Positions 5,599 through 50,622 of a stretch of DNA of 64,000 bases are shown one piece after another (position 1 is the stretch's first letter; every line of letters starts with the position of its first letter). A program made the translations under genes and the position numbers. The stretch lies in the NCBI GenBank assembly GCA_000990325.1, contig LBPS01000008.1, positions 97 to 64,096 on the forward strand, in the 5' to 3' direction. The DNA comes from Candidatus Nomurabacteria bacterium GW2011_GWE2_34_25 (GTDB lineage: Bacteria > Patescibacteriota > Minisyncoccia > Phycocordibacterales > UBA9973). The notes beneath the pieces were generated by a model. That model was not told the origin of the DNA, searched no databases, and was given only the letters and a program-made list of their open reading frames with translations.

Positions 5599-7269
5599 AT
5601 GCAAAGCGAAACAAAAAATTGCCAGAATTGCAAAAAAGACTTCACTATAGAGTCGGATGATTTTTTGTTTTACGAGAAAATAAAAGTCCCTCCTCCAACA
5701 TGGTGTCCTGATTGTAGACAGCAAAGACGGTATGCATGGAGAAATGAAAGAACTCTTTATAGAAGAGATTGTAATTTGTGTGGCAAGAGTACAGTTACAA
5801 TTTATTCACCAAATAAAGATTTAAAAGTTTATTGTTTGAAATGTTGGTGGGGAGATGGTTGGGATCCATCATCTTATGGTAAGGATTTTGATTTTTCTCG
5901 ACCCTTTTTTGAACAGTATAAGGAGTTACAAAAAATAGTTCCAAGAATGGCTGTTTTGAGTAAAAATACAATTAATTCAGAATATACCAATCATTGTCGA
6001 GACAACAAGAATGTTTATCTTACTTTTACTTGTACTGATAGTGAAGATATTTCATATTCAACATGGATAATGAAATCAAGAAATTGTATGGATTGTAGTT
6101 ATATTTATGAAGGAGGAGAAAGACTATATGAGTGTATAGATTCACGCAAGGTATATCATTGTCAATATGGAATTCTTTTAGAGAATTGTGTTGATTGCTA
6201 TTATTGTTACGATTGTCATAATTGTAATGATTGTTTCATGTCTTCAAATTTAAGGAATAAAAGTTTTGTTTTTAAAAATCAACAATATTCTCGTGAAGCA
6301 TATTTAGAAAAAATATCTGAATATAATTTAAATTCATATCTAAATCGTGAAAAATTATATAAAGAATTTCTTGATTTTATGGTCTTTAATTCTATCCATC
6401 GTTATGTTATAAGTGAACGTAATGTAAATTCCATTGGCAATATGTTGTTTAACAGTAAAAATGCAATTAATTGTTTTGATTCTGAAGTTATTGAAGATGT
6501 GAAAAATGCATATGCAGTTTTAGTCTTAAAAAATTCAATGGATTTATATCATATTGGATGGAATACAGAATTAGCTTATGAAGATCATGGGTGTACCAAG
6601 ATCTATAATTGTCAGTTTTGTCATCTTTGCTATGATGATTCTCACTTAATATATTGTGATTCTTGCCAAAATAGTCAAAATCTTTTTGGTTGTATTTCGA
6701 TCAAGAAAGGAGAATATATGATTTTAAATAAGAAATACTCAAAAGAAGAATATTTAGAGTTAAAAGAAAAGATAATAGAACATATGAAAAAAATAGGTGA
6801 ATATGGAGAATTTTTTCCACCATCCATTTCCCCAGTTTGTTATAATGAAACGCAAGGTAATTATTATATGCCAGAAACTAAGGAAGAGATTTTATCTCGT
6901 GGTTGGCTTTGGGAAGATAAGATACCAGGTATTTTTGGTAAAGAAACAATTCAACCAGAAGATATTCCAGATAGTATAAAAGATGTAGATAACTCTATTT
7001 CAAAAGAGATATTAAAATGTATTTCTTGTACAAAAAATTATAATATTGTACCAGATGAATTGACTTTTTATCGTCGAGAAGAGATTCCTATTCCAAGAAA
7101 TTGTCCAGAATGTAGATATAAAAAGAGATTTAATTTGCGATTACCTCGTAAGCTCTGGCGTCGTTCCTGTATGAAGGAAGGCTGTAATAACGAATTTGAA
7201 ACTTCATATGCACCAGAGAGGCTTGAGATAGTGTATTGTGAGCAGTGTTATCAACAGGAAGTGTATTAG
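5599..7269 (+). CDS. Cys-rich repeat protein with N- and C-terminal tandem zinc ribbons (paralog 1 of 4)
   Basis: 556 aa. The N-terminus reads CQNCKKDFTI...FYEKIKVPPPTWCPDCR...RDCNLCG...VYCLKCW. The C-terminus reads CISCTKNYNI...FYRREEIPIPRNCPECR...RSCMKEGCNNEFETSYAPERLEIVYCEQCYQQEVY. Internal repeats follow the pattern NCxDCxxCxNLxNKxYxIxNKxYSKEEY. The same architecture recurs at 21768, 38663 and 46757. Confidence 0.8.
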   Translation: MQSETKNCQNCKKDFTIESDDFLFYEKIKVPPPTWCPDCRQQRRYAWRNERTLYRRDCNLCGKSTVTIYSPNKDLKVYCLKCWWGDGWDPSSYGKDFDFSRPFFEQYKELQKIVPRMAVLSKNTINSEYTNHCRDNKNVYLTFTCTDSEDISYSTWIMKSRNCMDCSYIYEGGERLYECIDSRKVYHCQYGILLENCVDCYYCYDCHNCNDCFMSSNLRNKSFVFKNQQYSREAYLEKISEYNLNSYLNREKLYKEFLDFMVFNSIHRYVISERNVNSIGNMLFNSKNAINCFDSEVIEDVKNAYAVLVLKNSMDLYHIGWNTELAYEDHGCTKIYNCQFCHLCYDDSHLIYCDSCQNSQNLFGCISIKKGEYMILNKKYSKEEYLELKEKIIEHMKKIGEYGEFFPPSISPVCYNETQGNYYMPETKEEILSRGWLWEDKIPGIFGKETIQPEDIPDSIKDVDNSISKEILKCISCTKNYNIVPDELTFYRREEIPIPRNCPECRYKKRFNLRLPRKLWRRSCMKEGCNNEFETSYAPERLEIVYCEQCYQQEVY

Positions 7270-21767: not shown

Positions 21768-23465
21768 ATGCAAAGTGAAATTAAAATTTGTCAAAACTGT
21801 AAAAATGATTTCACTATAGATCCTGAGGATTTTTTATTTTATGAGAAAATAAAAGTTCCTCCACCAACCTTTTGTCCACATTGTCGGTTTGTACGACGAT
21901 TAATATGGAAAAACGAACGGTCTTTATATAAAAGAAAATGTGATATGTGCCAAGAAAGTATTATTTCAATGTATAATGAAAAAGTAGCTTTTTATGTATA
22001 TTGTTCTTCTTGTTACAAAAGTGATAAATGGGAAGCAGGAGAATATGCGCAAAACTATGATTTTAGTAAAGCATTTTTTACACAATGGAAAGAATTGTTT
22101 AATAAAGTTTCAAGGCAGTCACTATGGCAATTTGGTGATTGTATAGATTCAGAATATGCTAATTTTGTATATTTTTCTAAAAATGTATATTTAAGTAGTT
22201 CTATTATAGACGGGTCCGAAGATGTATATTTTTCAAATAACGTTGATGGATCAAAACAAGTAATAGATTCATTTAATGTATTAAAGAGCGAATTAATTTA
22301 TCAAAATATCAGTGGAAATAAAAATTATAATTGTCAATACTCATATTGGTCAACTGGATGTATAGATTGTAATTTCATACTTGATTGTAATAATTGCCAA
22401 GATTGTTTTGGTTGTGTAAATTTACAAAATAAAAGATATTGTATTTGGAATATTCAATATACAAAAGAACAGTATGAAGAGAAGATGAAAGAATTAAATA
22501 CAGGCAAGCACTCTTTTGTTGAAGAGTTTTCAAAAATATTTTGGGAATTTACATTAGAATTTCCAAGGAAACATGCAAGAATTATTAATTCTATTGATTC
22601 TACTGGTGATGAGCTTAGAAATAATAAAAATACCTCAAGTTCTTTTAATGTTTATGATTCTGAAAATCTTAAATATACATACAGATGTGTTCACGCAAAA
22701 GATTCCATGGATATTTGTCATTCATATGCAGAGCACGCGTATGAGCATGCTTTTGCTGGTGCTGAGAACAGTCAGAACATTAAATTTGTTATTACAGGAG
22801 AAGTTGCTTTAAGCATGGTTGAGTATTTAGATGCCTGTAAATCTTCCTCTAATCTCTTCGGTTGCATAGGTCTCAAAAACAAACAGTATTGTATTTTAAA
22901 TAAGCAATATACAAAAGAAGAATACGAAGAAATGATACCAAAAATTAAACAACATATGGATGAAATGCCGTATATAGATAGTAAGGGCAGGGTATATAAG
23001 TATGGAGAATTCTTTCCTTATGAACTATGTCCATTTGGATACAACGAAGCTGTTATAAATGATCATTTTCCATTAACCAAAGAAGAAACAATAGAAAGGG
23101 GATATCCATACAAAGAAAAGATAGATAACAAATATACAATTACTTTAAAAGCCAAAGATATACCAGATGATATAAAAGATGTAGACGATTCTATACTAAA
23201 TGAAGTTATAGAGTGTGAAGCATCAGGTAAAGCATTTAAAATAACTCCATTTGAACTTCAATTTTACAAACGTATGAATATTCCCATCCCTAGACTTCAT
23301 CCAGATGAAAGATACAAGAAACGCTTAGCTCTGAGGAATCCGATGACTCTATATACTCGCACTTGTATGAATGAAGGTTGCACAAATACATTTGAGACTA
23401 CCTATGCTCCAAATAGGCCAGAGATAGTATATTGTAAAGAATGTTACCAGAGGGAAGTGTATTAG
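21768..23465 (+). CDS. Cys-rich repeat protein with terminal tandem zinc ribbons (paralog 2 of 4)
   Basis: 565 aa. N-terminal CQNCKNDFTI...FYEKIKVPPPTFCPHCR, C-terminal RTCMNEGCTNTFETTYAPNRPEIVYCKECYQREVY, and internal NCNNCQDCFGCVNLQNKRYCIWNIQYTKEQYEE repeats. Confidence 0.8.
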   Translation: MQSEIKICQNCKNDFTIDPEDFLFYEKIKVPPPTFCPHCRFVRRLIWKNERSLYKRKCDMCQESIISMYNEKVAFYVYCSSCYKSDKWEAGEYAQNYDFSKAFFTQWKELFNKVSRQSLWQFGDCIDSEYANFVYFSKNVYLSSSIIDGSEDVYFSNNVDGSKQVIDSFNVLKSELIYQNISGNKNYNCQYSYWSTGCIDCNFILDCNNCQDCFGCVNLQNKRYCIWNIQYTKEQYEEKMKELNTGKHSFVEEFSKIFWEFTLEFPRKHARIINSIDSTGDELRNNKNTSSSFNVYDSENLKYTYRCVHAKDSMDICHSYAEHAYEHAFAGAENSQNIKFVITGEVALSMVEYLDACKSSSNLFGCIGLKNKQYCILNKQYTKEEYEEMIPKIKQHMDEMPYIDSKGRVYKYGEFFPYELCPFGYNEAVINDHFPLTKEETIERGYPYKEKIDNKYTITLKAKDIPDDIKDVDDSILNEVIECEASGKAFKITPFELQFYKRMNIPIPRLHPDERYKKRLALRNPMTLYTRTCMNEGCTNTFETTYAPNRPEIVYCKECYQREVY

Positions 23466-35520: not shown

Positions 35521-35545
35521 AACCTTATATTATAAGGTTATTTTA
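35521..35545 (+). terminator. Terminator hairpin aaccttata-t-tataaggtt followed by ATTTT
   Basis: A perfect 9-bp palindrome immediately after the hemerythrin stop. Confidence 0.55.
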
Positions 35546-35550
35546 CGCTG

Positions 35551-35624
35551 TGGACCCTACAGGACTCGAACCTGCCACCTCCTCATTGCAAATGAGGCGC
35601 TCTAGCCAGATGAGCTAAGGGCCC
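35551..35624 (-). tRNA. tRNA-Ala (anticodon TGC)
   Basis: Acceptor GGGCCCT/AGGGTCC with a G-U pair at position 3, anticodon stem CCTCA/TGAGG, loop TTTGCAA, and T-loop TTCGAGT. Confidence 0.85.
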
Positions 35625-35698
35625 AGCTAAATATCTCTCTATATTACCGTATTTTTAATTTTTTGCAAGACTGACTGATATTTTTATGTTGTTTTATT

Positions 35699-36994
35699 CT
35701 AGAACAGTGATATTGTCGCCGCTACAGCCGTGATACTCATAAGTATTGTAGCTATCCATCCTAGGGTTTTTGTGATAGGTTTATTTTTAAATTCACCCAT
35801 GATTTTTTGACTACTACTTATTTTTACTATAAAAACAAGAATTACAGGAGCTACTATTCCGTTGGCTATGGCAGAGTAGAGTAGTGCCTTTATGGGATCA
35901 ATACCAATAAAATTTAAAATTATTCCTATAATTATAGAAACAGCTATGACTCCATAGAAAGCATGAGCGGTTTTCCATTTACGATAAAGACCCTCTTTCC
36001 ACCCAAAGCTTTCAGTTATGGCATATGCAGTTGAACCGGCCAAGACTGGTATCGCTAGCAATCCAGTCCCGATGATTCCAATTGCAAAAAGAAGCGTTGC
36101 GAATGATCCCGCAAGAGGTTTCAATGCTAAGGCAGCATCAGCAGCTGTTTCTATGTTTGTGATTCCGTTTACAAAAAGAGTGTTTGCACATACTGCGATA
36201 ATGAAGAACATTACGAGATTTGAGAGGAACATTCCAACCCATATGTCCATTCGCATTTCTTTTATTTCACTATGAGTTGTTCCTTTACGTGAAGCTAAAG
36301 TTTTTTTACCATCCATTATTTCTTCCTCGATTTCCTCTGATGTTTGCCAGAAGAATAAATATGGAGAGATGGTTGTTCCCAGTATTCCAGTTATAAGTAA
36401 AATTTGAGTTTTTGAAAATGTTATATGAGGAATGATTCCGTCACGAAGAAGCAGAGACCAATCCATGTGGATTATAAGGCCAGTAACGATGTATGAGAAG
36501 ACCGCGATAACGAGCCATTTCAAATATTTTGTGTAAATACGATAAGGGACGATTATTTCTAAAAGTAGGCCTGCAATTCCAGTGAAAATAACAAGAAAAA
36601 CAAAAGAAGCCTTTGGAGCTAGTAGTTGCACTGCTTTGGCCATCGCCCCTAAGTCAGCTCCGATGTTTAATGTATTTGCAAAGAAGAGTAATATTGTACA
36701 AATATAAAGAATTTTCTTTGGGAAATTTCTTTTGATATTTGAAGCAAGTCCACGCCCTGTGACCATCGCTATACGAGCACACATTTCTTGGACTGTAGAT
36801 ACAAGTGGATAAATCCAGAGGGCCATCCAGAGTAATCCTGTTCCGTATTGAGCTCCTGTTTGTGAATAAGTAGTGATTCCAGAAGGATCATCATCTGCTG
36901 CTCCTGTTATGACTCCTGGTCCAATTTTTTTAAGATAATCTATTTTATCTTTCGATAAAGATTCTGTATTTTCTACTAATTCTTTTTCTTTCAT
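35699..36994 (-). CDS. mntH: Nramp-family divalent metal (Mn2+/Fe2+) transporter
   Basis: The signature GPGVITGAADDDPSGITTYSQTGAQYG and about 11 TM helices. The start is chosen at MKEKELVEN. Confidence 0.88.
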   Translation of the reverse strand: MKEKELVENTESLSKDKIDYLKKIGPGVITGAADDDPSGITTYSQTGAQYGTGLLWMALWIYPLVSTVQEMCARIAMVTGRGLASNIKRNFPKKILYICTILLFFANTLNIGADLGAMAKAVQLLAPKASFVFLVIFTGIAGLLLEIIVPYRIYTKYLKWLVIAVFSYIVTGLIIHMDWSLLLRDGIIPHITFSKTQILLITGILGTTISPYLFFWQTSEEIEEEIMDGKKTLASRKGTTHSEIKEMRMDIWVGMFLSNLVMFFIIAVCANTLFVNGITNIETAADAALALKPLAGSFATLLFAIGIIGTGLLAIPVLAGSTAYAITESFGWKEGLYRKWKTAHAFYGVIAVSIIIGIILNFIGIDPIKALLYSAIANGIVAPVILVFIVKISSSQKIMGEFKNKPITKTLGWIATILMSITAVAATISLF

Positions 36995-37129
36995 ATGAGA
37001 TGTATTATAACAACAAAAGAGGAGCACAACAAATGAATACTAATTCAATTTGTTGATGTCCGAGAGCCGTTGTTATATCGTACTCGATATACTTTTTATT
37101 ATAATTTGATACAATAAGGGTATCACTTT

Positions 37130-38623
37130 ATGGCACTAAATAAACCAAACAAAATCCAGATTATTAAGTATGCTCCACCACCACCAGATCTTCCAACTTT
37201 AGGTAGGGTAGATCCGAGTGATGTGACCTTTATCGGCCGTACGAATTATGTAGCTTCTTTAGAAGAAAAGAAGTTCGTTTTCGGATTCAAGCGTATTGAT
37301 CGTCGCCGTCATTTATACATTATTGGAAAGTCTGGCGTTGGTAAGTCAAAGCTTCAAGAATTGATGATTCGTCAAGATATAGCTTACGGACATGGTGTCT
37401 GTATTATTGATCCTCACGGAGAGCTTATAGAAGACATCTTGAATTTTATTCCAGAGGAGCGTATTGAAGATGTCTGTATTATTGATCCAGGAGATATAGA
37501 GTTCCCATCTTCATTTAATCCACTTGCAAATATTGATCCAACGTTCAAGCATCAACTAACCCAAGGATTGATCGAAGTTCTCCGTAAGCAATTCGGTGCC
37601 AACTGGACTCCACGTTTGGAGCACGTTTTCCGTTTTACAGTCCTAGCTCTTCTCGATTATCCGTTTGCAACAATGCGTGGGATGATTAGTATGCTTACTG
37701 ACAGAAATTATCGTCAGAAAGTAGTTGAATATATCGAAGACGACATGGTCAAACGCTTCTGGGCAATAGAATTCGCGGACTGGTCTGAGAAGTTCGATAC
37801 GGATGCCATCATCCCTTTGGTGAACAAGCTTGGGCAATTTCTTTCTGACCCAATGCTTCGAAATATTTTCGGACAAAAAGAAAACAAAATAGACCTCGAA
37901 GAAATAATGAACGGACAAAAGATTCTCTTAATCAATCTTTCCAAAGGTAAGATTGGGGAAGAGAATTCATCATTCTTCGGAGCCATGTTCCTAACGAAGA
38001 TTAAGCAAGCGGGTATGGCTCGTGCCAAGCTTGAGCCGAAAGATCGTGCGGACTTTTACTTATATGTCGATGAGTTCCAGAACATTGTTACAGATACTTT
38101 TGAAAACATTCTTTCCGAAGCTCGTAAGTACGGATTGAACCTTATTGTTGCCCACCAGTACGTCGCTCAGCTTTTACCTAAAGTTCAGCAAGCAGTTTTA
38201 GGAAATGTGGGATCTATTATTACCTTCCGTGTGGGAGGAGATGATGCGACGAAGCTCAAGCCAGAGTTTGCTCCAGTTTTCGACGTGAAAGATATGATCA
38301 ACTTAGGAGTGGGGGAATTCTATGTCAAAATGACGATAGATGGAGAGAGTTATGATCCATTTTCTGGAGAAACTTTACAAGTACTCCCCGCTACTCATCC
38401 GTCTTATAGACAAAGAATCATAGAAGCTTCTCGTCGTAAGTACTCCATACCAGCAGGTGATGCACAGAGGCTCATTGCCGAAGAAGAAGCTACTATCATC
38501 CGCAGCGCCCAAGAGAAAGCTGCTATTACAGGAAATAAAAAAGAAGAAAAAGACGAAGACGCCAATGACAATAAAAAAGAAGAAATAAAGAAAGAAGAAA
38601 AAGGAGGGGAACCATTAATATAA
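37130..38623 (+). CDS. Soluble TraD/TrwB/VirD4 (T4SS coupling protein)-like P-loop ATPase, paralog 1
   Basis: Walker A HLYIIGKSGVGKSKL, Walker B-like FYLYVDEFQNIVTD, the RKYGLNLIVAHQYVAQL motif, and no TM helices. It is paralogous to 42952-45225 and has a charged KE-rich C-terminus. Confidence 0.75.
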   Translation: MALNKPNKIQIIKYAPPPPDLPTLGRVDPSDVTFIGRTNYVASLEEKKFVFGFKRIDRRRHLYIIGKSGVGKSKLQELMIRQDIAYGHGVCIIDPHGELIEDILNFIPEERIEDVCIIDPGDIEFPSSFNPLANIDPTFKHQLTQGLIEVLRKQFGANWTPRLEHVFRFTVLALLDYPFATMRGMISMLTDRNYRQKVVEYIEDDMVKRFWAIEFADWSEKFDTDAIIPLVNKLGQFLSDPMLRNIFGQKENKIDLEEIMNGQKILLINLSKGKIGEENSSFFGAMFLTKIKQAGMARAKLEPKDRADFYLYVDEFQNIVTDTFENILSEARKYGLNLIVAHQYVAQLLPKVQQAVLGNVGSIITFRVGGDDATKLKPEFAPVFDVKDMINLGVGEFYVKMTIDGESYDPFSGETLQVLPATHPSYRQRIIEASRRKYSIPAGDAQRLIAEEEATIIRSAQEKAAITGNKKEEKDEDANDNKKEEIKKEEKGGEPLI

Positions 38624-38662
38624 TTACTGATTACAAATTACTAATTAATAATTTAAAAAATT

Positions 38663-40306
38663 ATGAAAAAGATTTGTGAACATTGCCAGAAAGAATTCAT
38701 TATTACTGATATAGAGAAATCTTTAAGTGAAAAGATTGGACTAGAATTATCTACCGTCTGTTCAAGGTGTCTTTTAAAACAGCAGTTGTCTTTTTGGTTA
38801 TTTGGTAAATTTCGTAAAAGTAAATCTGATTTATCAGGTGAGAGTTTTATAACTGTATTACCAGAAAGTCGTTATCCACTTTACTCACTAAAGGAATGGT
38901 ATAGTGATGCTTGGGATGCGATGGATTACGGAGCGAAATACAATCCAAGTGAATCATTTTTTAAACAACTACAATCTCTTCAAGAGAAAGTTCCTCACCC
39001 TCATCAAAATGGAATTAATAATACAGGATGTGATTATTGTGATGATGTTTGGAGTTGCAAGAATTGTTATTTAGCTCGATCTATGGTTGATTGTGAAGAT
39101 CTTTTATATTCTTACCGAAACATTAAGGTTAAAAATTCTATAGATGTAGCTATATGCTTTAGTTCCGAGAGATGTTTTTGTTCTCTTAATTGTATGAATT
39201 CATATAAACTTTTCTATTCTAGAGATTCAAAAGATTGCATAGATTCATATTTTCTTTTTGATTGTCGCAACTGCCAGAATTGCTTCATGTGCTGTAATTT
39301 AAGAGGGAAGAGTTATTGTATAGAGAATGTACAGTATACAAAAGAAGAATACAATGAAAAACTAAAAGATTTTAATTTAGGTTCATATTCTCAAATTAAA
39401 CTGTTTAAAGAACATTTTGAAGAAATGCTTAAAAATGTAGCAATCCATAGATTAAATTTTAATCTTAAAACTTATAATTCTACTGGTAACAATTTATTAA
39501 ATGTAAATAATTGTATAAATTGTAATACTATTTCTGATTCAGAAGATTGTGTTAATTGTACAAGAGGTACTAAAACCAAATCCTCTTTAAATTATGCTGG
39601 ATGTTTTGAAGGAGAGTTGCTAGGTAGTTGTAGTGGTTGTGTGAATGCATATAATTTGAAATATTCTTCTTGGTCTTCGTCAAGATATTCTGAATATTTG
39701 GATTTGTGTATTGACTGTGAATATTGTTTTGGCTGTGTGGGGCTTAAGAAGAAAAAGTATTGTATTTTAAACAAGCAATACACCAAAGAAGAGTATGAAA
39801 AATTAAAAGATGAAATTATAAATAAAATGAAAGAAGACGGAGAGTATGGCAAGTTCTTACCTTACTCTATGAGTCCAGGACCATTCAATTTCTCAACTAG
39901 TTATTTATATTTCCCCAATACGACCAAGGAAGAAATTTTGAAATTGGGTGGTTATTGGCAAGACATAGATGAAAGCAATATAGAGGGTATGTCCACAAGT
40001 GAATTGCCTGACTCTATAGATGATGTGGATGAAAGTATTTGTACCAAAGCATTGATTTGTCCTCTGACTGGTTGGCGTTTCAATATTTCCAACAATGAAT
40101 TAGGATTTTATAAACAGTACAATATTCCACTTCCTCGTAAGCATTTTGATGTAAGAATAAAAGATCTGTTGAAATATTCAACTGTACTAGAAACAACTCC
40201 ATATAATTGTTATTATTGCAAAAACAAAATAGAAGCTTTTTATCCGAGTGAATGGGGGTACAAGAATATTGCTTGCGAAAGTTGTTATCAACAGAATTTA
40301 AACTAA
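38663..40306 (+). CDS. Cys-rich repeat protein with terminal zinc ribbons (paralog 3 of 4, more divergent)
   Basis: 547 aa. N-terminal CEHCQKEFII...VCSRCL, internal CRNCQNCFMCCNLRGKSYCIENVQYTKEEYNEKL and CEYCFGCVGLKKKKYCILNKQYTKEEYEKL repeats, and a C-terminal ...NIACESCYQQNLN. It starts 40 bp after the ATPase at 37130. Confidence 0.75.
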   Translation: MKKICEHCQKEFIITDIEKSLSEKIGLELSTVCSRCLLKQQLSFWLFGKFRKSKSDLSGESFITVLPESRYPLYSLKEWYSDAWDAMDYGAKYNPSESFFKQLQSLQEKVPHPHQNGINNTGCDYCDDVWSCKNCYLARSMVDCEDLLYSYRNIKVKNSIDVAICFSSERCFCSLNCMNSYKLFYSRDSKDCIDSYFLFDCRNCQNCFMCCNLRGKSYCIENVQYTKEEYNEKLKDFNLGSYSQIKLFKEHFEEMLKNVAIHRLNFNLKTYNSTGNNLLNVNNCINCNTISDSEDCVNCTRGTKTKSSLNYAGCFEGELLGSCSGCVNAYNLKYSSWSSSRYSEYLDLCIDCEYCFGCVGLKKKKYCILNKQYTKEEYEKLKDEIINKMKEDGEYGKFLPYSMSPGPFNFSTSYLYFPNTTKEEILKLGGYWQDIDESNIEGMSTSELPDSIDDVDESICTKALICPLTGWRFNISNNELGFYKQYNIPLPRKHFDVRIKDLLKYSTVLETTPYNCYYCKNKIEAFYPSEWGYKNIACESCYQQNLN

Positions 40307-40311
40307 ACATA

Positions 40312-40345
40312 CACAGGTCTGACCTGTGACAGGTTGCATTTTTAT
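40312..40345 (+). terminator. Hairpin cacaggtc-tg-acctgtg followed by T-run
   Basis: It sits directly after the stop of 38663-40306, with gcattttta downstream. Confidence 0.55.
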
Positions 40346-40424
40346 TATATTGTGTTATAGTTTGAGCAAAATTTATCTTTGAAATATAACCAAAATCACC
40401 CACAAAGGAGGGGTTATTCACCAT

Positions 40425-41285
40425 ATGAGACAATTAAAGATTACAAAATCGATCACAATGCGCGAGAGCGCTTCCCTGGACAAGTATTTACAAGAGATTG
40501 AGAAAGAAGAACTTGTAACTCTTGAGGAAGAAGTGGAGTTAGCCCAGCGGATAAAAAAGGGTGATCGGGTAGCACTGGAGAAACTTACAAGAGCAAACTT
40601 GCGTTTCGTAGTTTCTGTAGCTAAACAGTACCAGAATCAGGGATTAAGTTTACCCGACCTTATCAATGAAGGTAATCTGGGATTGATTAAAGCCGCCGAG
40701 AAGTTTGATGAAACCAGAGGGTTCAAATTTATTTCCTATGCTGTATGGTGGATTCGTCAATCCATTTTGCAGGCATTGGCCGAGCAATCCAGAATTGTGC
40801 GGTTGCCTTTGAATCAACTTGGTTCGTTGAACAAAATCAACAAGGCATTTTCCAAACTGGAACAGGAGTATGAACGAAAGCCGACACCCGATGAGCTTGC
40901 CGAATCATTAGATCTCCCTGCCGACAAAGTGGCTGATACCCTTCGTATTTCAGGCCGTCATATTTCTTTTAATGCTCCTTTTGTTGAAGGAGAAGATAAC
41001 AGTTTGTTGGATGTTTTAATCAACAACGATTCGCCAAATGCTGACAGAGGTTTAATGATGGAGTCATTGGCCAGAGAAATTAAACGAGCTTTGGCAACTT
41101 TAACTGAACGGGAAAGCGATATTATTCGGTTCTTCTTCGGAATTGGCTGCCAGGCAATGACCCTTGAAGAAATTGGTGAACGTTTTGGACTAACCCGGGA
41201 ACGTGTACGTCAGATGAAGGAAAAAGCAATTCGCCGGTTAAGACACAGCTCAAGAAGTAAATTATTAAAAACATATCTCGGATAA
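40425..41285 (+). CDS. Compact 286-aa primary-type sigma-70 factor lacking region 1.1 (Bacteroidetes sigma-A-like)
   Basis: [11 protein letters not shown]... N-terminus, region 2 ([27 protein letters not shown]) and region 4 ([20 protein letters not shown]). The length and N-terminus match what I recall of the unusual Bacteroidetes primary sigma. The gene is visibly more G+C-rich than its neighbours. Confidence 0.8.
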
Positions 41286-41296
41286 CGAGATATTAG

Positions 41297-41330
41297 GAGG
41301 GATTCTCACTACATGGGAATCCCTCTTTTT
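41297..41330 (+). terminator. Rho-independent terminator gagggattc-tcactacatg-ggaatccctc + TTTTT
   Basis: A perfect 9-bp stem followed by a T5 run, right after the sigma gene. Confidence 0.75.
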
Positions 41331-41398
41331 GTTTACAAATTCAAGGAGAGTGTTACAATTATATTGTAAAGGTCGTAGTTAGCTTATCTATATATTTT

Positions 41399-41704
41399 AT
41401 GGTTTTTATATATACAACGTGTGAAAATATGGAAGAGGCAAAGAAACTAGGCGGACTTATAATAGATCAGAAGATCGCCGCTTGTGTAGATTTCTGGTCA
41501 ATATCATCTTGTTATAATTGGGAGGGGGAGTCAAAATGCGTAGAACAAGCCATGCTCCTTATTACAACCTTTGAAGCGAAGCTTGATGCTGTGAATCAGA
41601 TAATTTCTGAGAATCATACTTACAGTGTCCCTCTTATTGCTGGGGTCGATGTTCGTCGTATTAATCACCCTTACAAAGAATGGATGATGAAAGAAATAGT
41701 TTAA
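41399..41704 (+). CDS. cutA: Divalent-cation tolerance protein CutA
   Basis: About 100 aa with AACVDFWSISSCYNWEGE...HPYKEW, the CutA1 signature. Confidence 0.75.
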   Translation: MVFIYTTCENMEEAKKLGGLIIDQKIAACVDFWSISSCYNWEGESKCVEQAMLLITTFEAKLDAVNQIISENHTYSVPLIAGVDVRRINHPYKEWMMKEIV

Positions 41705-41705
41705 A

Positions 41706-42137
41706 ATGCCTGACCTTACTAATCAAAAGAAAATATTAATCTTCGGCGTTTTCGATGGTGTCCACGAAGGACATCTTTCTTTTATAAATGAAGCGAGGGA
41801 GCAAGGCAGTCAGCTTGTAGCTATTGTCACTCGCGATAGTATGGTAGAGAAGATGAAAGGTAAGCTTCCTAAATATAATGAAGTAGAAAGAATCAAAAAT
41901 CTTTTAGAAATTCCCGAAGTCGATAGGGTACTCTTGGGCGACTTAGATATGGGTACATATAATATTTTAAAAGAAGTTGCTCCTGATATTGTATTCCTAG
42001 GTTACGATCAGAATGAATTATTTGATGATTTGAATTTAAAAATAAAAGAAGGGTATTTAAATAATATAGAAATTTTACAAGGCAGTCCCCACAAAGCAGA
42101 TACTCACCATTCTTCAATTTTGAATAAAAAAAGTTAG
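41706..42137 (+). CDS. Cytidylyltransferase-fold nucleotidyltransferase (archaeal RibL-type FAD synthase-like)
   Basis: The HxGH motif GVFDGVHEGH, and IVTRDSMVEKMKGKLPKYNEVERIKNLLEIPEVDRVLLGD...PDIVFLGYDQ, which resembles the RibL/GCT family. Confidence 0.6.
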   Translation: MPDLTNQKKILIFGVFDGVHEGHLSFINEAREQGSQLVAIVTRDSMVEKMKGKLPKYNEVERIKNLLEIPEVDRVLLGDLDMGTYNILKEVAPDIVFLGYDQNELFDDLNLKIKEGYLNNIEILQGSPHKADTHHSSILNKKS

Positions 42138-42276
42138 TTTACATATTTCAGTTATGACTGAGATATGTATTTTAAATAAATAGATAAAAAGATAGCCCGG
42201 AACAGTATGTCGTCCGGGCTAAACTCAATTAAAAAACATTACGAACTTATCGAACGTTTCGGCATGCAGTAGTGAA

Positions 42277-42738
42277 TCAAGTAATACTGTTTCCGCCGGC
42301 CAAATTTTCCATGCAAGCGCTGGTCATCAATGCTTTGAGTACATGGCATCCAGATCCATCCCTCAGGTTAGTAGCAACGGCATCATCCACGAAAGTTGTA
42401 AAATTAACACAATTATTACTTGCCAAAAATTGAACAGGTGGTTTGGTTTGTAACACCATAGAAGAAATAACTACACCAGGAGATAGTTCTTGGTTAGCAG
42501 TTTTTAGGATCACTTCATTCGCAACAGTAGCATTTTCCACTCTGGCAGTCGTCTGTGGTAATACTACAACCGGTAAGCTTATTTCCGGAGAAGCAACGGT
42601 CATATCCACTACTACAAAGTGCTTAGCAGGTGGAGATGAATTTGAAGAGCTTGCAATCCCTTTGTTATTTGAAAGCAACACAATACTGGTCACAATCATA
42701 ATAACAAGCATAAGAAAACGACTGAACGATTTCTTCAT
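42277..42738 (-). CDS. Hypothetical secreted protein (signal peptide), G+C-richer than genome background
   Basis: An N-terminal hydrophobic signal segment (MKKSFSRFLMLVIMIVTSIVLL) and no recognisable domain. Confidence 0.45.
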   Translation of the reverse strand: MKKSFSRFLMLVIMIVTSIVLLSNNKGIASSSNSSPPAKHFVVVDMTVASPEISLPVVVLPQTTARVENATVANEVILKTANQELSPGVVISSMVLQTKPPVQFLASNNCVNFTTFVDDAVATNLRDGSGCHVLKALMTSACMENLAGGNSIT

Positions 42739-42878
42739 GTTAATGATTTTAAATGTTAGAAAACAGTACATAATCATCAGTAGATTTCCTAGGTCTACGT
42801 GTATTATGATTATTTATTTTTTCAAATTAAGGATATCATATCTATATAATTCTTGTCAAATATTTTTGGTGGATAAAT

Positions 42879-42909
42879 GTTTAGGGTTTTGCGAAGCAAA
42901 ACCCTAAAC
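42879..42909. promoter_or_regulatory. 31-bp perfect palindrome gtttagggttttgc-gaa-gcaaaaccctaaac upstream of the second ATPase gene
   Basis: A 14-bp perfect stem with a 3-nt loop, located about 45 bp upstream of the start at 42952, between divergent genes. Confidence 0.5.
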
Positions 42910-42951
42910 CCTTTTGTAAATTTATAATTAAAGGTATAATATATTCATATC

Positions 42952-45225
42952 ATGGAAAATGAAATTCCACACAATCGTGACATAACATACTTTGCTAAGA
43001 CGAATTTTCGTAATAGTGACAATATTTTCGGTATTAAGCGTAAGGATCGTCGTCAGCATATGTACATTCTCGGAAAGTCAGGTACTGGTAAGTCTGTTTT
43101 ACTCTCAAATCTAATTGTTCAAAATATCCAAAATGGTGAAGGTGTTTGTGTTGTCGATCCTCACGGAGAGCTTGTCGAAGAAGTCCTGCATCTTATCCCA
43201 GAACACAGAAAGAAAGATGTTATTTATTTCAATCCTGCCGATACTGAATTCCACATAGGGTTCAACGTCATCCAGCTCGATGATCCAAAGTACAAGCACT
43301 TGGTAGCTTCAGGACTCATGGGTATCTTCACGAAGATTTGGGCCAATGCTTGGAGTTCTCGTATGGAGTACATTTTGAACAATGCGATTCTAGCCCTGCT
43401 CGACACCCCAGGTACGACTCTTCTCGGTATTCCACGTCTCTTAGTCGACAAAGATTATCGTCAAATGATCATTGGTAATTTAAAAGATCCAGTTGTGAAA
43501 GCTTTCTGGGTTCACGAGTACGAGCAGTGGCGTGAGCAGTTCAGAAATGAAGCCATCGCGCCGATTCAGAACAAGGTTGGGCAATTCCTCTCCACTTCGA
43601 TTATTCGTAATGTTGTCGGTCAGCCGAAGTCAACGATAGATATTTTCAAAATAATGAACGAAGGCAAGATCTTCCTTGTCAATGTTTCCAAGGGGCGTAT
43701 CGGTGAGGACAATTCAGCTTTGCTTGGAGGTATGATTATTACCAAGATCCAGCTTGCCGCCATGGAGCGTGTGCGTATTCCCGAGGACGAACGTAAAGAT
43801 TTCTATTTATATGTCGACGAATTTCAAAACTTTGCGACTGATTCATTTGCGAACATTCTCTCAGAAGCTCGTAAGTATCGTTTGAATCTGACAGTTGCTC
43901 ACCAGTACACTGCTCAACTTGAGAACAAAGATGGATCGAAGGTTCGTGATGCTGTCTTCGGTAACGTCGGAACCATGATTATTTTCCGTGTTGGTGCGGA
44001 CGACGCAGATTTTCTTGAAAAAGAATTTGAGCCAGAATTCATGGCTCAAGACTTAGTAAACTTACCGAACTTTCACGTTTATCTAAAGCTTATGATAGAT
44101 GGTATTACTAGTCGTCCCTTTTCTGCTTCGACTCTTCCTCCCCTTAAAGTTGATCCGACTTCAGGTGTGAAAGATGCAATCATAGCTTCTTCTCGTAAGC
44201 TTTACACTCGCTCTCGTCAAGAAGTTGAAGATGAAATCTCCAGATGGAGTGGAATGCTTCAAGTGGGTGATGGAGAAGCAAAGTACAAGGCTGACTGTTC
44301 TAATTGTGGCAAGGTTACAATGGTTCCTTTTGAACCTCAGGAAGGCAGACCTGTTTATTGTAAAGAATGTATGTTCAAGATAAAGAGTGGCGAGCTCAAG
44401 CCCGATAGTGGTTTTATTGCTTCTCGTTCTTCTCGCCAAGAAGAGAAAGTTTCAACTGCACCTTTGGCTGCTTTAGGTATAGAATTTGCTGTGACTGATA
44501 CAAACTTTAGAGTTTCAAAGAATCAAGAGCAGACGAATCCGAAAATACCAGAAAGAATTGACAGAAATATTAATACAAATAATAATACCAATAACAATCA
44601 TTACAATAATCATCAGTCGGATACAAATAGGAATCATTTTGTGAAAAATGAAAGGAAGCATTCAGGACCCTCACCACTTTTGAAAGGGTTATTGCAAAAG
44701 ATTGGTATGGGTAATAATAAAGGAGAAGCATCTTCTGTCCCCGAAGCAACAGAAATTAAAAAAGAAGTTCCAGCTCCTATATCTCTCTCTTCACTTAAGA
44801 AAGACACGATAAAAGATGTGAGGAAAGAATTCGTAGCCCCTGTCAAAGAAGCGACAGAGGAAAAGAAAGCATCACTTAAAGACTTGCTTGCAAAGACCGT
44901 AAATCATCATCACGAAGAGCATATTGTCGAAGTCGCCTCGAGGGCGGCAGTCAGAGAAGGCGGGAAGGAAGAGGAAGTTCCTGAAGTTAAAGAAGTAATT
45001 CCTGAAAAGAAAATTGAAATAATAGAAACAAAACCTGAAGTTAAAGAAGAAATATTTATACCTAAAGTAGAGGAAGTCCCTGTAGCACCTCCTTCTGTAC
45101 CATTGCCTCCTAAAAAAGAAGAGATAAAATCGGGTGGAGATGATATTGCGGATTCTCTTGCTTGGCAGAAACGTCAAGTGAAGAAGGAAGTTCCAGAAGA
45201 TGTGCTCCGTAAAGTCTTAGAATAA
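42952..45225 (+). CDS. Soluble TraD/VirD4-like P-loop ATPase, paralog 2, with C-terminal zinc ribbon and long low-complexity tail
   Basis: Walker A HMYILGKSGTGKSVL, FYLYVDEFQNFATD, and RKYRLNLTVAHQYTAQL. A C-terminal CSNCGKVTMVPFEPQEGRPVYCKECMF zinc ribbon is followed by N-rich and KE/P-rich low-complexity sequence. Confidence 0.75.
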   Translation: MENEIPHNRDITYFAKTNFRNSDNIFGIKRKDRRQHMYILGKSGTGKSVLLSNLIVQNIQNGEGVCVVDPHGELVEEVLHLIPEHRKKDVIYFNPADTEFHIGFNVIQLDDPKYKHLVASGLMGIFTKIWANAWSSRMEYILNNAILALLDTPGTTLLGIPRLLVDKDYRQMIIGNLKDPVVKAFWVHEYEQWREQFRNEAIAPIQNKVGQFLSTSIIRNVVGQPKSTIDIFKIMNEGKIFLVNVSKGRIGEDNSALLGGMIITKIQLAAMERVRIPEDERKDFYLYVDEFQNFATDSFANILSEARKYRLNLTVAHQYTAQLENKDGSKVRDAVFGNVGTMIIFRVGADDADFLEKEFEPEFMAQDLVNLPNFHVYLKLMIDGITSRPFSASTLPPLKVDPTSGVKDAIIASSRKLYTRSRQEVEDEISRWSGMLQVGDGEAKYKADCSNCGKVTMVPFEPQEGRPVYCKECMFKIKSGELKPDSGFIASRSSRQEEKVSTAPLAALGIEFAVTDTNFRVSKNQEQTNPKIPERIDRNINTNNNTNNNHYNNHQSDTNRNHFVKNERKHSGPSPLLKGLLQKIGMGNNKGEASSVPEATEIKKEVPAPISLSSLKKDTIKDVRKEFVAPVKEATEEKKASLKDLLAKTVNHHHEEHIVEVASRAAVREGGKEEEVPEVKEVIPEKKIEIIETKPEVKEEIFIPKVEEVPVAPPSVPLPPKKEEIKSGGDDIADSLAWQKRQVKKEVPEDVLRKVLE

Positions 45226-45234
45226 TTTATTTTT

Positions 45235-46626
45235 ATGATTATAAAAAGAATCAAATATTCCGTAATTTTTATTGTAATGCTTTTTGCTTTTTCACACTTA
45301 GCACAAGCTAATCTTGAAATTACCGAAGTGAATTATAATCCAGCAGTTAAAGCTAATCATCTTTGGATAAAAATTTTCAATAATACAACCGATGAGGTTG
45401 ACCTTACTATGTGGTCTGTATCAGATTATGATGGTACTTCATGGCACCATCATGCTATTAATGCAGATGGTTCTTCATTTTTATCTCCCAACTCGTATGC
45501 GATAGTGGCGAAAGCATCTTCTACCACTATTGATGATTTTAAAAGTAAAAATCCTGAAATTTCAGATATGTTATTTTATGGTAATTTAACTATTGAAAAC
45601 GAGGGGGTGTTAGGACTTAGCAATGACAAAAAGACCATTATTAGCAATAAATCATATGGTGGAGCTATTGTACCCTCAGATACAAATTCGGACAGCAATG
45701 CCAGTGATACAAGTAGCACCAGCACAAGTGGAAGTGTTTCAAGTTCTAGTTCATCAAAAGAAGAAACCAAAGTTTATAACATAACAACGAAGATTATTTC
45801 TCCGAAAATTGTAACTGCAGGAGTACCTTTCACTCTTGATCACAATACAACAGGCATAAAGAAGGAAAAGATTATCCTAGGTAAATTCGTTTGGAATTTT
45901 GGAGATGGTATGAAAAAAGAGGGAATTACTTCCGATCCATTTTCTTATATTTATCAGTATCCAGGTGAGTATGTTTTAACTCTTTCATATTCTGGTTCTT
46001 CTTTTAGTGCAAAACCAGATGCGACCGATAGGCTTATAGTAAAAGTTATCTCCTCTGGTATTGTTATAAGTTCAGTTGGTACATTTGCCGACCCGTATAT
46101 AGAAATAGAGAATAATTCAAACTATGAAATGTCTATGAGTAATTTTATTATAAAAGGCAGTGTTCATTATTTTATAATTCCAAACGGTATGATGATACTT
46201 CCTAAGAGCAAATTAAAATTATCCCCTAGAATCACTGGTTTTGATATCAATGATTTGACTTCTATTTCTATTATTGACACTTCTGGGCAGATTTTCGCGA
46301 CTTATCCAAACAAAGTAGCATCAACAATAAAATATTCAACAAGTAAAAATATAAATAATGTCACGTCTGAAAATATTGTAAAGTCAGATATTGCCACCGA
46401 CAATCAGAATGGAAATCCTAACAACGTTATAGATTTGAATAACCTTGGTGTCAGTGCTGTAAATTCAAAAGAGTTTAATTTAAGCAAAGGGGCTTATGCT
46501 TGGTTTGGGCTTGCTGTAATTCTTATCATTGGTATTGCAAGTGTAATTCTTATTCGTCGTAAGGAAGAAATTCCTGACTATGTGGAAGAGACGATAAGTG
46601 CCAAAGACATAACGATAATAGAGTAG
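45235..46626 (+). CDS. Secreted, C-terminally membrane-anchored surface protein with two lamin-tail domains (LTD) flanking a PKD-like domain
   Basis: A signal peptide; LTD-like ITEVNYNPAV...VDLTMWSVSD...SYAIVAK; the PKD signature FVWNFGDG...YIYQYPGEYVLTLS; a second LTD-like segment (YIEIENNSNYEMSMSNFIIKG); and a C-terminal TM helix followed by RRKEE. It starts 10 bp after the ATPase stop. Confidence 0.7.
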   Translation: MIIKRIKYSVIFIVMLFAFSHLAQANLEITEVNYNPAVKANHLWIKIFNNTTDEVDLTMWSVSDYDGTSWHHHAINADGSSFLSPNSYAIVAKASSTTIDDFKSKNPEISDMLFYGNLTIENEGVLGLSNDKKTIISNKSYGGAIVPSDTNSDSNASDTSSTSTSGSVSSSSSSKEETKVYNITTKIISPKIVTAGVPFTLDHNTTGIKKEKIILGKFVWNFGDGMKKEGITSDPFSYIYQYPGEYVLTLSYSGSSFSAKPDATDRLIVKVISSGIVISSVGTFADPYIEIENNSNYEMSMSNFIIKGSVHYFIIPNGMMILPKSKLKLSPRITGFDINDLTSISIIDTSGQIFATYPNKVASTIKYSTSKNINNVTSENIVKSDIATDNQNGNPNNVIDLNNLGVSAVNSKEFNLSKGAYAWFGLAVILIIGIASVILIRRKEEIPDYVEETISAKDITIIE

Positions 46627-46648
46627 CTAGTCACATAGCCACAAGTTA

Positions 46649-46669
46649 GCCACAAGTCCGACTTGTGGC
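46649..46669 (+). terminator. Hairpin gccacaagt-ccg-acttgtggc (shares the AAGTCCGACTT core with the hairpin at 7276)
   Basis: A perfect 9-bp stem with a ccg loop, 23 bp after the LTD gene stop. Confidence 0.5.
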
Positions 46670-46756
46670 TAGAATATAGACAAAGTAACATTAAAACTGT
46701 AAGCTTAATTTATAATTATAATATAAAGACTCCAGCAAGGCTGGTAAAATAATAAA

Positions 46757-48421
46757 ATGGAAACAAAGACTTGTCAAAACTGTAAAAATGACTTCATAAT
46801 TGAGCCAGATGACTTTTCTTTCTATGAGAAAATGAAAGTTCCTGTACCTAAAATTTGTCCAGATTGTCGCTTTAAAATGAGGGCAATGTGGAGAAATGAG
46901 ATGAGTATGTATTCAGGACGAAAGTGCGGTTTATGTGGCAAAAGTGTATTATCTATTTACAATCTCAAATCCCCATTTACAACATATTGTTATGAATGTT
47001 TTTATTCTGAAAAATGGAGTCCCAAAGATTATGCAACTCTATACGATAAGTCACGACCATTCTTTGATCAAATGGGGGAGTTTTTAATTAAAGTTCCTAA
47101 GATAAATTTAGGTATTTCTACTGGAGATGGACCAAATATAAATAGTGAATATGTGAATATGGCTGGAGGATGCAAGAATTGTTATCTTGTTTTTAATACA
47201 AGTCCTGCTGAAGAATTACTTTATTCTAGGGGTGTAAAGAGTGGTATTTTTTCTTCTGACATTTATTTTGGAGTGAAGTTTGAGAACTGTTACGATTGCG
47301 TGAGTATTCAAGAATCAGCCAATGTTTTCTGGGGACAAAACATTATGGGCTGTGTAGATTCCTATTTTATTTTAAATGGTAGTGGTCTCACGAATTGTTT
47401 TGGCTGTGTTAATTTAAGGAATAAAAGTAATTGTTGGTTTAATGAGCAATTAACTTCCGAAGAATATAAAACAAGATTGGGTGAAGTTATGGGTAGCTAT
47501 TCAAAAATATTAGAAGCTCGCAAGAAATTTGAAGAATTTTGTTTACAGCATCCACATAAAGAGAACAATAATTTAAAAACGATAAATTCTGTGGGGGACT
47601 ACTTAACTGAATGCAAAAATGTTGTAAATTCTTTTGAAGTGGCAAAATCAGAAGATTGTCGTTATATTTTTTCATCTAAAATGATTAAGGATTCTTTGGG
47701 AACAACTGGATTTGGGACAAAATCTGAAAGATTACTTGAAGTTGTTGCGACTGGACATTCTAGTAATATTATAGGTTCTTATTGGGCGGAAAATTGTAGT
47801 AATGTAATGTATTCTTTTGATTTGAGAAATTGCCATGATTGTATAGGGTGTGACGCTCTAAAGAATGGTAAATATGCCATTTTTAACAAAGAATATTCAA
47901 AGGAAGAATACGAGGAATTAAAGGCTCATATTGTTAAAGAGCTTACAGAACAGGGGATACATGGGCTCATGATGCCAGTAATTATCGCTCCATTTGCATA
48001 CAATGAAACAATTGCTCAAGATAATTTCTCACTAACCAAAGAGGAAGCATTGGCCCAAGGCTATAGGTGGGAAGATGATATACAGATGACTAAGGGCAAG
48101 GATACAATACAGCTAGATGACATAGAAGATAATATCAAAGATATTAGAGATTCTATAACAAGTGAAATATTGAAATGCATCTCTTGCGAAAGGAATTATA
48201 AGATTACGGAGCAAGAGCTACTTTTTTACAGAAAAATGGTCCTACCTATTCCTCGTCAGTGTTTCTATTGTCGTCATCAGGATAGAATAAAAAGGCGAGG
48301 TCCATATAAATTCTGGGATAGGAAATGTGATCATTGTGATAAAGATATTAAAACCAATTATTCACCAGAACGTAAGGAAATAATATACTGCGAGAAGTGT
48401 TATCAGCAGGAAGTAATATAG
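46757..48421 (+). CDS. Cys-rich repeat protein with terminal tandem zinc ribbons (paralog 4 of 4)
   Basis: 554 aa. N-terminal CQNCKNDFIIEPDDFSFYEKMKVPVPKICPDCR...RKCGLCG, C-terminal CISCERNYKI...FYRKMVLPIPRQCFYCR...CDHCDKDIKTNYSPERKEIIYCEKCYQQEVI, and internal CHDCIGCDALKNGKYAIFNKEYSKEEYEEL repeats. Confidence 0.8.
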   Translation: METKTCQNCKNDFIIEPDDFSFYEKMKVPVPKICPDCRFKMRAMWRNEMSMYSGRKCGLCGKSVLSIYNLKSPFTTYCYECFYSEKWSPKDYATLYDKSRPFFDQMGEFLIKVPKINLGISTGDGPNINSEYVNMAGGCKNCYLVFNTSPAEELLYSRGVKSGIFSSDIYFGVKFENCYDCVSIQESANVFWGQNIMGCVDSYFILNGSGLTNCFGCVNLRNKSNCWFNEQLTSEEYKTRLGEVMGSYSKILEARKKFEEFCLQHPHKENNNLKTINSVGDYLTECKNVVNSFEVAKSEDCRYIFSSKMIKDSLGTTGFGTKSERLLEVVATGHSSNIIGSYWAENCSNVMYSFDLRNCHDCIGCDALKNGKYAIFNKEYSKEEYEELKAHIVKELTEQGIHGLMMPVIIAPFAYNETIAQDNFSLTKEEALAQGYRWEDDIQMTKGKDTIQLDDIEDNIKDIRDSITSEILKCISCERNYKITEQELLFYRKMVLPIPRQCFYCRHQDRIKRRGPYKFWDRKCDHCDKDIKTNYSPERKEIIYCEKCYQQEVI

Positions 48422-50025: not shown

Positions 50026-50622
50026 ATGCCAGACAAAATCATACTTAATCAAAAATTTTGGAATATGAGAGAAGAAGATCTACCTTGTCTTATTACTTAT
50101 GGGAACAAATCTGGTGGTTCATATTTTTCTGTTGTAACACTTGCCAATTTATTATTAGCTGGATCAAAAGTTTTATTATTTACGGCTTATCCTATGGCTA
50201 AAGATAATTTCTTGGGGCAAATTAAAGGAGGTGGACAAGATGTATCTTATATTTCAAATGAAAGTGAACTAAATAGCAAAACGGGAGCTATTATAATAGA
50301 AAGTGGTAATGAAGAATTATTCTTAAAAGCTCTTGAAAAATTAGATGACATAGAAGATCGTGTAGTTCTAATAAAGAATATTGAAGTATTTGATTCTACC
50401 ACTATTGAAGCTTGTTTAAAACTCAAGAAAGTAATCATTTCAGGTGATATAGATCTTTGTTCTTCCAACAAGCTTATTATGGATAAGCAGTTCAATACAA
50501 TCGTTATTTTTTCTAATCCAAAGGTAACATTATCATTTGATGTTCCAGAATTAGAAAAATATAAAGGTTATTTGTGGAGTATTAATAGTAAGGGCATCGT
50601 CGCTGTCCAAAAAGAAAATTAA
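50026..50622 (+). CDS. Hypothetical protein
   Basis: A 198-aa ORF with no recognised motif. Confidence 0.35.
   Translation: MPDKIILNQKFWNMREEDLPCLITYGNKSGGSYFSVVTLANLLLAGSKVLLFTAYPMAKDNFLGQIKGGGQDVSYISNESELNSKTGAIIIESGNEELFLKALEKLDDIEDRVVLIKNIEVFDSTTIEACLKLKKVIISGDIDLCSSNKLIMDKQFNTIVIFSNPKVTLSFDVPELEKYKGYLWSINSKGIVAVQKEN

Follow-up and report, generated by a model that had tools for sequence, protein, structure and literature searches.

What do the two type IV coupling protein (T4CP)-like ATPases of a patescibacterial genome work with when no secretion system lies beside them? The question is raised by a stretch of 64,000 nucleotides from Candidatus Nomurabacteria bacterium GW2011_GWE2_34_25 (contig LBPS01000008.1, positions 97 to 64,096 of the forward strand), hereafter the window, in which two such ATPases, ATP1 and ATP2, each have a gene for a cysteine-rich (Cys) protein one or two genes downstream. 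These ATPases are members of a class known from Patescibacteria before, the orphan T4CP homologues: 5,713 VirD4-type homologues in 2,918 genomes, about two per genome, with 148 of them near virB4, and a homologue in Southlakia that is non-essential (PMC12102498). Why Patescibacteria keep some two homologues unlinked to a type IV secretion system (T4SS) was left open in that 2025 survey, whose authors considered exaptation to another function possible (PMC12102498). Here, we describe a real and well-supported genomic association of this known but unexplained ATPase class with an undescribed protein family. The elements concerned are as follows.

37130..38623, + strand: ATP1, a T4CP-like P-loop ATPase of 497 amino acids without a transmembrane (TM) domain (open reading frame and Pfam)
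38663..40306, + strand: Cys3, a Cys-rich paralogue of 547 amino acids with 38 cysteines (blastp against the other three paralogues, alignment)
42952..45225, + strand: ATP2, a T4CP-like ATPase of 757 amino acids (Pfam and NCBIfam)
44284..44379, + strand: zinc ribbon of ATP2, zf_Tbcl_2/TIGR04272, residues 445-476 (PF23477, TIGR04272)
45235..46626, + strand: LTD-PKD-LTD surface protein of 463 amino acids, its PKD part probable (Pfam LTD, TM prediction)
46757..48421, + strand: Cys4, a Cys-rich paralogue of 554 amino acids (open reading frame, domain layout)
5599..7269, + strand: Cys1, a Cys-rich paralogue between rpoC and dnaG-rpoD, with no ATPase near (blastp)
21768..23465, + strand: Cys2, a Cys-rich paralogue between mreB-mreC and a split tgt, with no ATPase near (blastp)

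The five open reading frames of positions 37130-48421 that a sequence-only reading had picked out proved exact in their coordinates, all lie on the + strand and carry the domains ascribed to them. Its arrangement of an ATPase gene followed in the same orientation by a Cys-rich gene was likewise borne out, with intergenic gaps of 39 bp between ATP1 and Cys3, 9 bp between ATP2 and the LTD gene and 130 bp between the LTD gene and Cys4; a scan of the first two gaps revealed no terminator-like site. The Cys-rich genes, which had been taken to be two, are four by blastp, two of them (Cys1 and Cys2) away from the ATPases. With about four Cys genes among about 55 genes, we estimate the chance that both ATPases have a Cys gene no more than two genes downstream at about 2%.

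The same pairing recurs in related genomes, for which we examined 160 loci in all, including an ATPase-anchored set of 80 metagenome loci; the more distant ATPases are those <65% identical to the ATPases of the window. Co-localisation, on which the sequence-only reading had staked its call of a system, was found: an ATPase is present in 34 of 80 Cys-anchored loci, as against about 4-6% expected, a roughly 9-fold enrichment (binomial p<1e-19, uncorrected for shared ancestry). In the ATPase-anchored set, a Cys gene lies within 3 kb of all 11 evaluable same-lineage ATPases and of 12 of the 27 evaluable distant ones. Adjacent ATPase and Cys genes share a strand in 43/45 pairs, the median gap from ATPase to Cys gene is 17 bp, and the adjacency comes in both orders (ATPase before Cys and Cys before ATPase), involving various Cys subtypes as well as ATPases that share no more than 47-56% identity with those of the window (L094-L102, L126 and L039). 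In L001, L002, L003, L006, L008 and L090, the Cys4 orthologue comes directly after ATP2. In addition, at least three Cys copies are present in 34 of the 80 Cys-anchored loci, with as many as about 11 of them in 21 kb.

A particular layout is seen in Paceibacteria-type relatives, in which the order is grpE - Cys - dnaK - ATP2 - Cys… - ATP1 - dnaJ (L001, L002, L005, L006, L012, L054, L066, L070, L082-L086 and L090). DnaK is encoded in 26 loci (directly upstream of an ATPase in 6), DnaJ in 23 (directly downstream of an ATPase in 16) and GrpE in 7, there upstream of Cys genes; DnaK is absent from the window.

The two ATPase-Cys pairs of the window had been described as a duplicated module, a description that the paralogue identities do not bear out. 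Cys3 and Cys4, at about 32-33% identity, are among the least similar Cys pairs of the window (blastp); Cys4 is closer to Cys1 and Cys2 than to Cys3, which itself is 33-35% identical to the other three paralogues by blastp. ATP1 and ATP2, sharing 47.6% identity over 414 residues, are ancient paralogues that define separate orthogroups, not the outcome of a recent duplication. Recent duplication of the module was rejected on the paralogue identities together with the wide distribution of both ATPase types.

In the profile search that the sequence-only reading had proposed, both ATPases score above the Pfam gathering thresholds of T4CP-type families, namely TrwB_AAD_bind (PF10412; 30.8 and 58.6 bits, cut-off 20.5), T4SS-DNA_transf (PF02534; 30.2 and 36.1 bits, cut-off 20.1) and TraG-D_C (PF12696; 26.3 and 35.2 bits, cut-off 22), and also of DUF87; their scores with the NCBIfam TraD and VirD4 models are far under the cut-offs. 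The T4CP-type all-alpha domain inserted in the nucleotide-binding domain (NBD) is present. ATP1 carries its Walker A motif (GKSGVGKS) at residues 66-73, its Walker B motif (YVDEF) at residues 312-316 and its all-alpha insertion at about residues 137-247, and it has no zinc ribbon. In ATP2, the NBD (about residues 1-440) is followed by a CxxC-x17-CxxC ribbon at residues 445-476, which had been thought to end the protein but is succeeded by a low-complexity tail of about 280 residues. No TM segment is predicted in either protein. Structural comparison gave scores of 22.2 for the VirB4 C-terminal domain, 21.5 for the DptH/DndH C-domain, 20.0 for TrwB (338 residues aligned), 18.4 for Cagβ, 18.3 for HerA, 17.5 for DotL and 13.1 for FtsK, and these scores place the fold in the VirD4/VirB4/HerA branch of the FtsK-HerA superfamily. 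ATP1 has >6,000 homologues, 82-95% identical among the matches listed (120 clusters) and labelled [quoted passage not shown] "DUF87 domain-containing protein" or "HerA-like ATPase." ATP2 orthologues are labelled "CxxC-x17-CxxC domain-containing protein," and ATP2 itself has a match of 100% identity in P0391, a protein annotated as hypothetical from Candidatus Nomurabacteria bacterium GW2011_GWF2_35_6….

The window ATPases thus resemble T4CPs (VirD4/TrwB/TraD) in their P-loop NBD with Walker A and B motifs, in their profile matches and in their all-alpha insertion. They differ from T4CPs in having neither an N-terminal TM domain nor a T4SS or relaxase nearby, in that VirB4 and DptH score structurally as high as TrwB, in the zinc ribbon and long disordered tail of ATP2, and in that the membrane half found in their relatives is an unrelated protein of about 400 residues, fused or separate (X, below). 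Compared with HerA, VirB4 and DptH (DndH), they lack NurA, Sir2 or Dnd partners, have no match to the VirB4 N-terminal domain family and show a housekeeping-like distribution. Neither the window ORFs (open reading frames) that were scanned nor the recurrent neighbour families include a T4SS, VirB4 or relaxase gene. The sequence profiles thus speak for a T4CP, but two of the defining traits of T4CPs, the N-terminal anchor and the linkage to T4SS or relaxase genes, are missing.

The Cys-rich proteins form a large, uniform and previously unnamed family found almost only in Patescibacteria. A profile built from the four paralogues matches 5,119 representatives at 50% identity, 2,209 of them at E<=1e-30, and the best 150 matches are all 523-602 residues long. 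Cys4 alone has >5,000 homologues, with 64-85% identity among the matches listed (120 clusters); the named ones are almost all labelled Patescibacteria, and the labels are all "hypothetical" save for one from JGI (formylmethanofuran dehydrogenase subunit E). We found no description of the family in the Patescibacteria papers searched and no solved structure with the same combination of folds. The system call of the sequence-only reading would have failed with a well-characterised housekeeping protein; by profiles and literature alike, the family is uncharacterised.

Cys3 contains 6.9% cysteine and Cys4 5.6%. A confident AlphaFold2 (AF2) model of Cys4 (pLDDT 83, pTM 0.86) resolves ribbons N1 (residues 1-46), N2 (50-92), C1 (468-516) and C2 (517-554), two β-solenoids (about 130-232 and 268-380) with helices between them, and an α/β region (about 400-470), which is modelled very confidently and is the most conserved stretch across the paralogues. 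Ribbons 1 and 3 are homologous to each other (hhalign, 99.3%), as are ribbons 2 and 4 (98.2%); the solenoids match each other at 99.9% and so represent an internal duplication. The family combines four treble-clef zinc ribbons of two types, ordered A-B...A-B, with the duplicated β-solenoid that they flank. At E<=0.1, zf_Tbcl_2 is matched by 43/60 family members and zf_Tbcl by 40/60; single sequences reach 25.4 and 18.4 bits, under the Pfam cut-offs, and Cys1 matches zf_Tbcl_2 at residues 51-83 with an E value of 1.1e-5. Ribbons 1 and 3 are the ones that match zf_Tbcl (PF13451), weakly. In contrast with zf_Tbcl and zf_Tbcl_2 proteins, the ribbons here are terminal modules of a 550-residue protein with a duplicated β-solenoid core. 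Ribbon cysteines are lost in some paralogues, among them Cys3, in which those of ribbons 2 and 3 are largely gone and for which there is no Pfam or NCBIfam match. The solenoids bear comparison with curli CsgA, ice-binding or antifreeze β-helices and left-handed β-helix acyltransferases, and no profile match or strong structural match to the named β-solenoid families (left-handed β-helix, pentapeptide, bactofilin, curli) was found. No signal peptide or TM segment is predicted in the Cys proteins, which would therefore be cytoplasmic.

A second link between the two families is given by the ribbon of ATP2. It is a clear member of zf_Tbcl_2 (PF23477; 51.5 bits, cut-off 27) and TIGR04272 (54.3 bits, cut-off 36), with an E value of 8e-14, and profile-profile alignment by hhalign relates it to Cys ribbon 2 (96.5% probability, E 7.5e-10) and Cys ribbon 4 (96.0%, E 4e-9); neither ribbons 1 and 3 nor the solenoids show homology to it. 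The earlier suggestion of a shared domain is thereby upheld. The zf_Tbcl_2/TIGR04272 ribbon is present in 54/101 ATP2-type ATPases versus 0/47 ATP1-type ones. Zinc binding by small CxxC-x17-CxxC proteins has been shown by inductively coupled plasma mass spectrometry in Methanosarcina mazei (PMC12704099). The ribbon of ATP2 points to a ligand that the two families might have in common.

More distant relatives of the ATPases reveal a membrane half. This protein, X, of about 400-540 residues, has a TM segment at its N terminus and the motif EELATxxHFP…KKGGPPxxLP at its C terminus; its gene usually precedes that of a distant ATPase, and no Pfam, NCBIfam or PDB relative was found. X is fused N-terminally to the ATPase domain in 24 proteins of 823-1,164 residues (blast; ATPase ORFs of at least 800 residues), and in a fuller census it is fused to or directly upstream of 64/81 evaluable distant ATPases versus 4/45 close ones. 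The fusions and the adjacency identify the window ATPases as split-off NBDs of a protein that is elsewhere, or was ancestrally, membrane anchored; the N terminus of ATP1 holds a stretch, APPPPDLP, that resembles the tail of X. At several loci, two X::ATPase fusions stand in tandem, which fits two ancient paralogues per genome. "Soluble T4CP," as the window ATPases had been called, holds for these two ORFs, which lack TM segments, but not for the distant relatives with X fused or directly upstream. Cys genes also occur beside X::ATPase fusions (L094, L095, L100 and L102); a Cys gene is near 15/18 ATPases without X versus 6/18 with X (Fisher p=0.006, confounded by phylogeny).

Often upstream of X (37 loci) is a gene for a protein combining Sigma70_r4 with HARE-HTH, and the order of this gene, X, sometimes a small TM protein, and the T4CP-like ATPase is widely conserved in Patescibacteria, as seen in L081-L160 (for example, L125:7558-11542, L141:7716-11635 and L102:7808-12361). 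Neither X nor the HARE-HTH protein is encoded in the window. We considered a true sigma factor as the conserved upstream partner and rejected it: the gene at the distant loci encodes the Sigma70_r4 plus HARE-HTH protein, and its blast matches to the sigma genes of the window cover 48-101 residues only. The window gene at 40425-41285 is a genuine sigma-70 paralogue. Two such paralogues of about 40% identity are present, both on the + strand: this short one (286 residues, without region 1.1), directly downstream of Cys3, and a long one at 9103-10440, after Cys1-dnaG.

The LTD protein between ATP2 and Cys4 had been described as membrane anchored with an LTD-PKD-LTD layout. It does have two LTD stretches (59.9 bits, cut-off 34.3), a signal-like N-terminal segment (residues 1-20) and a C-terminal TM segment (residues 416-444), but PKD_4, at 24.0 bits, falls under its cut-off of 27, and the PKD assignment is a probable one. 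An LTD gene directly follows the ATPase in 4/151 cases, all of one subclade (L020, L062, L105 and L139), and lies between ATP2 and the Cys4 orthologue in the window and L062 only; elsewhere, the Cys4 orthologue directly follows ATP2. Rather than a core part of the system, as first supposed, the LTD-PKD protein is probably a subclade-specific neighbour. Nor would we take as established the premise of the sequence-only reading that LTD domains are surface modules that bind DNA.

The remainder of the window consists of ordinary housekeeping genes (rpoBC, dnaG, rpoD, mreBC, uvrBAC, ddl, murB, alr, five tRNAs and others), with a GC content of about 27-41% in 2-kb windows. One further gene lies downstream of Cys4.

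50026..50622, + strand: protein of 198 amino acids, family unrecognised, possibly an accessory on weak evidence (homologues between Cys genes and ATPases)

In L001, L002 and L070, homologues of this gene are found with Cys genes on one side and ATP1 on the other, and its product has no Pfam or PADLOC match. About 800 bp upstream of ATP2 (42138-42951) contain no confident + strand gene; a minus-strand ORF at 42277-42777 resembles a small secreted protein, a hairpin with a 14-bp stem lies at 42879-42909, just ahead of the ATP2 start, and Rfam at gathering thresholds gave no match in this region. Metal-related genes flank ATP1 (35086-37027 and 41399-41704; hemerythrin, Nramp and CutA), with Nramp divergent from it at a distance of about 100 bp, and adjacency of Nramp or CutA to ATP1 recurs in L015, L020, L028, L049, L060, L064, L081 and L147. 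In L046 and L069 (about 3.4-11.7 kb), a uvrB-uvrA-uvrC cluster is directly followed by a Cys-family gene, in whose place a ddl paralogue follows uvrB-uvrA-uvrC of the window (25060-31947). The tgt gene beside Cys2 is split into ORFs 23834-24316 and 24363-25079 (both +, in different reading frames), spanning TGT profile positions 3-90 and 150-356, respectively; a frameshift, a pseudogene or an assembly error might lie behind this, or the gene may genuinely be split. Finally, 51516-53027 on the minus strand encodes an unusual fusion of an N-terminal Cro/C1-type helix-turn-helix with an EPSP-synthase-fold (MurA-like) enzyme, with a counterpart of 83% identity in L020.

How, then, might the ATPases and the Cys proteins belong together? 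We tentatively favour, with a little less than even confidence, the explanation that the orphan T4CP-like motor has in the Cys proteins its zinc-ribbon adaptors, partners or clients, which are genomically coupled to it in Paceibacteria-type lineages. The motor would be hexameric and its Cys-rich associates zinc dependent; the ribbon type that both share would bind the same ligand in each, be it nucleic acid or a protein surface, and the Cys paralogues would supply different specificities or form hetero-oligomers. Without being part of a type IV secretion apparatus, the motor would most likely act at the membrane and on nucleic acid, a substrate suggested by the fold family to which the ATPases belong, by the neighbouring HARE-HTH protein and by the type of ribbon. 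Several observations weigh against this explanation. No ATPase-Cys fusion protein was found in a search by signature-motif regular expressions. Two of the four Cys genes of the window, and many in relatives, adjoin housekeeping genes (rpoC, mreC and uvrC). The ribbon is a trait of the ATP2 orthogroup that also occurs in distant lineages without nearby Cys genes; it is thus older than the link to the Cys proteins or unrelated to it, and the Cys family is not what it evolved for. In addition, the interleaving of ATPase and Cys genes with grpE-dnaK-dnaJ in the Paceibacteria-type clade leaves room for a protein-handling role alongside one on nucleic acid. A bolder form of the adaptor explanation, possible though doubtful, is that we are looking at an undescribed, Patescibacteria-specific cytoplasmic machine, in which arrays of Cys adaptors dock on a hexameric translocase via the shared ribbon and choose its substrates. 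The X membrane half and the HARE-HTH partner would join the ATPases where present, and paralogous adaptors would select different nucleic-acid or protein substrates.

As Patescibacteria genomes are compact and syntenic, some of the linkage may simply reflect gene order passed down by descent, and one could go further and explain all of it in this way: a family that makes up about 1% or more of genes, found also beside rpoC/dnaG, mreC/tgt and uvrC, in genomes with short intergenic gaps everywhere and with long blocks shared between close relatives (including dnaK, dnaJ, CutA and Nramp), would sit next to ATPases by retained order without function. We regard this as unlikely, given that the adjacency recurs in varied orders and orientations, with different Cys subtypes and with ATPases 47-56% identical to those of the window, that it exceeds expectation by the factor given above, and that the ribbon type in common ties the two families together independently. 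The interleaving with grpE-dnaK-dnaJ, the recurrence of CutA and Nramp beside ATP1 and the metal-related genes flanking it in the window would suit a proteostasis or metal-handling module, with the ATPases acting on proteins together with Hsp70 and the Cys proteins as zinc- or redox-sensitive co-factors or clients; yet the dnaK linkage is limited to one clade and missing from the window, proteins with the fold of these ATPases are best known as translocators of DNA or secretion substrates, and the widest-conserved neighbour is the DNA-binding HARE-HTH protein, which together make this quite improbable. T4CPs are substrate receptors (PMC12102498), and multi-paralogue Cys arrays next to an ATPase, with conserved termini and a more variable middle, could be a repertoire of effectors recruited as cargo for export to a host cell. 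Such a role is distinctly improbable for proteins whose orthologues are 64-85% identical, unlike arms-race effectors, and which are predicted to be tightly folded around several zinc ions; nor were T4SS channel genes found among the scanned ORFs of the window, and nearly all such T4CPs lie far from virB4. The least credible proposal, DNA uptake with the LTD-PKD protein capturing DNA for the ATPases to pull in, or else an anti-phage conflict system, as the sequence-only reading had contemplated, draws on the 9-bp gap between ATP2 and the LTD gene, on the four loci that repeat this order and on the generic mad8, HerA and DndH models, the only PADLOC models that the ATPases match. It is contradicted by the rarity of that order among 151 ATPases, by the lack of any PADLOC match for the Cys, LTD or 198-residue proteins, by a single fragment among 2.9 million viral contigs and by genes that are, unlike defence islands, extremely conserved, near-universal and set in a housekeeping context; the defence or conflict system was rejected on these grounds.

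Returning to the adaptor, partner or client explanation, the recurrent ATPase-Cys pairing is a first lead on what the orphan motors work with, and this locus and the 160 related ones offer three testable partners: the Cys family in Paceibacteria-type lineages, X in other lineages and the HARE-HTH/sigma-region-4 protein. If the bolder idea of a dedicated machine were true, it would account for the retention, in almost all genomes of the phylum, of two coupling-protein homologues without a secretion system. By extrapolation from its 4 genes among the roughly 55 of the window, the Cys family may account for at least 1% of the genes of some bacteria whose genomes are among the smallest known, and its role, once worked out, would fill a real gap in Patescibacteria biology.

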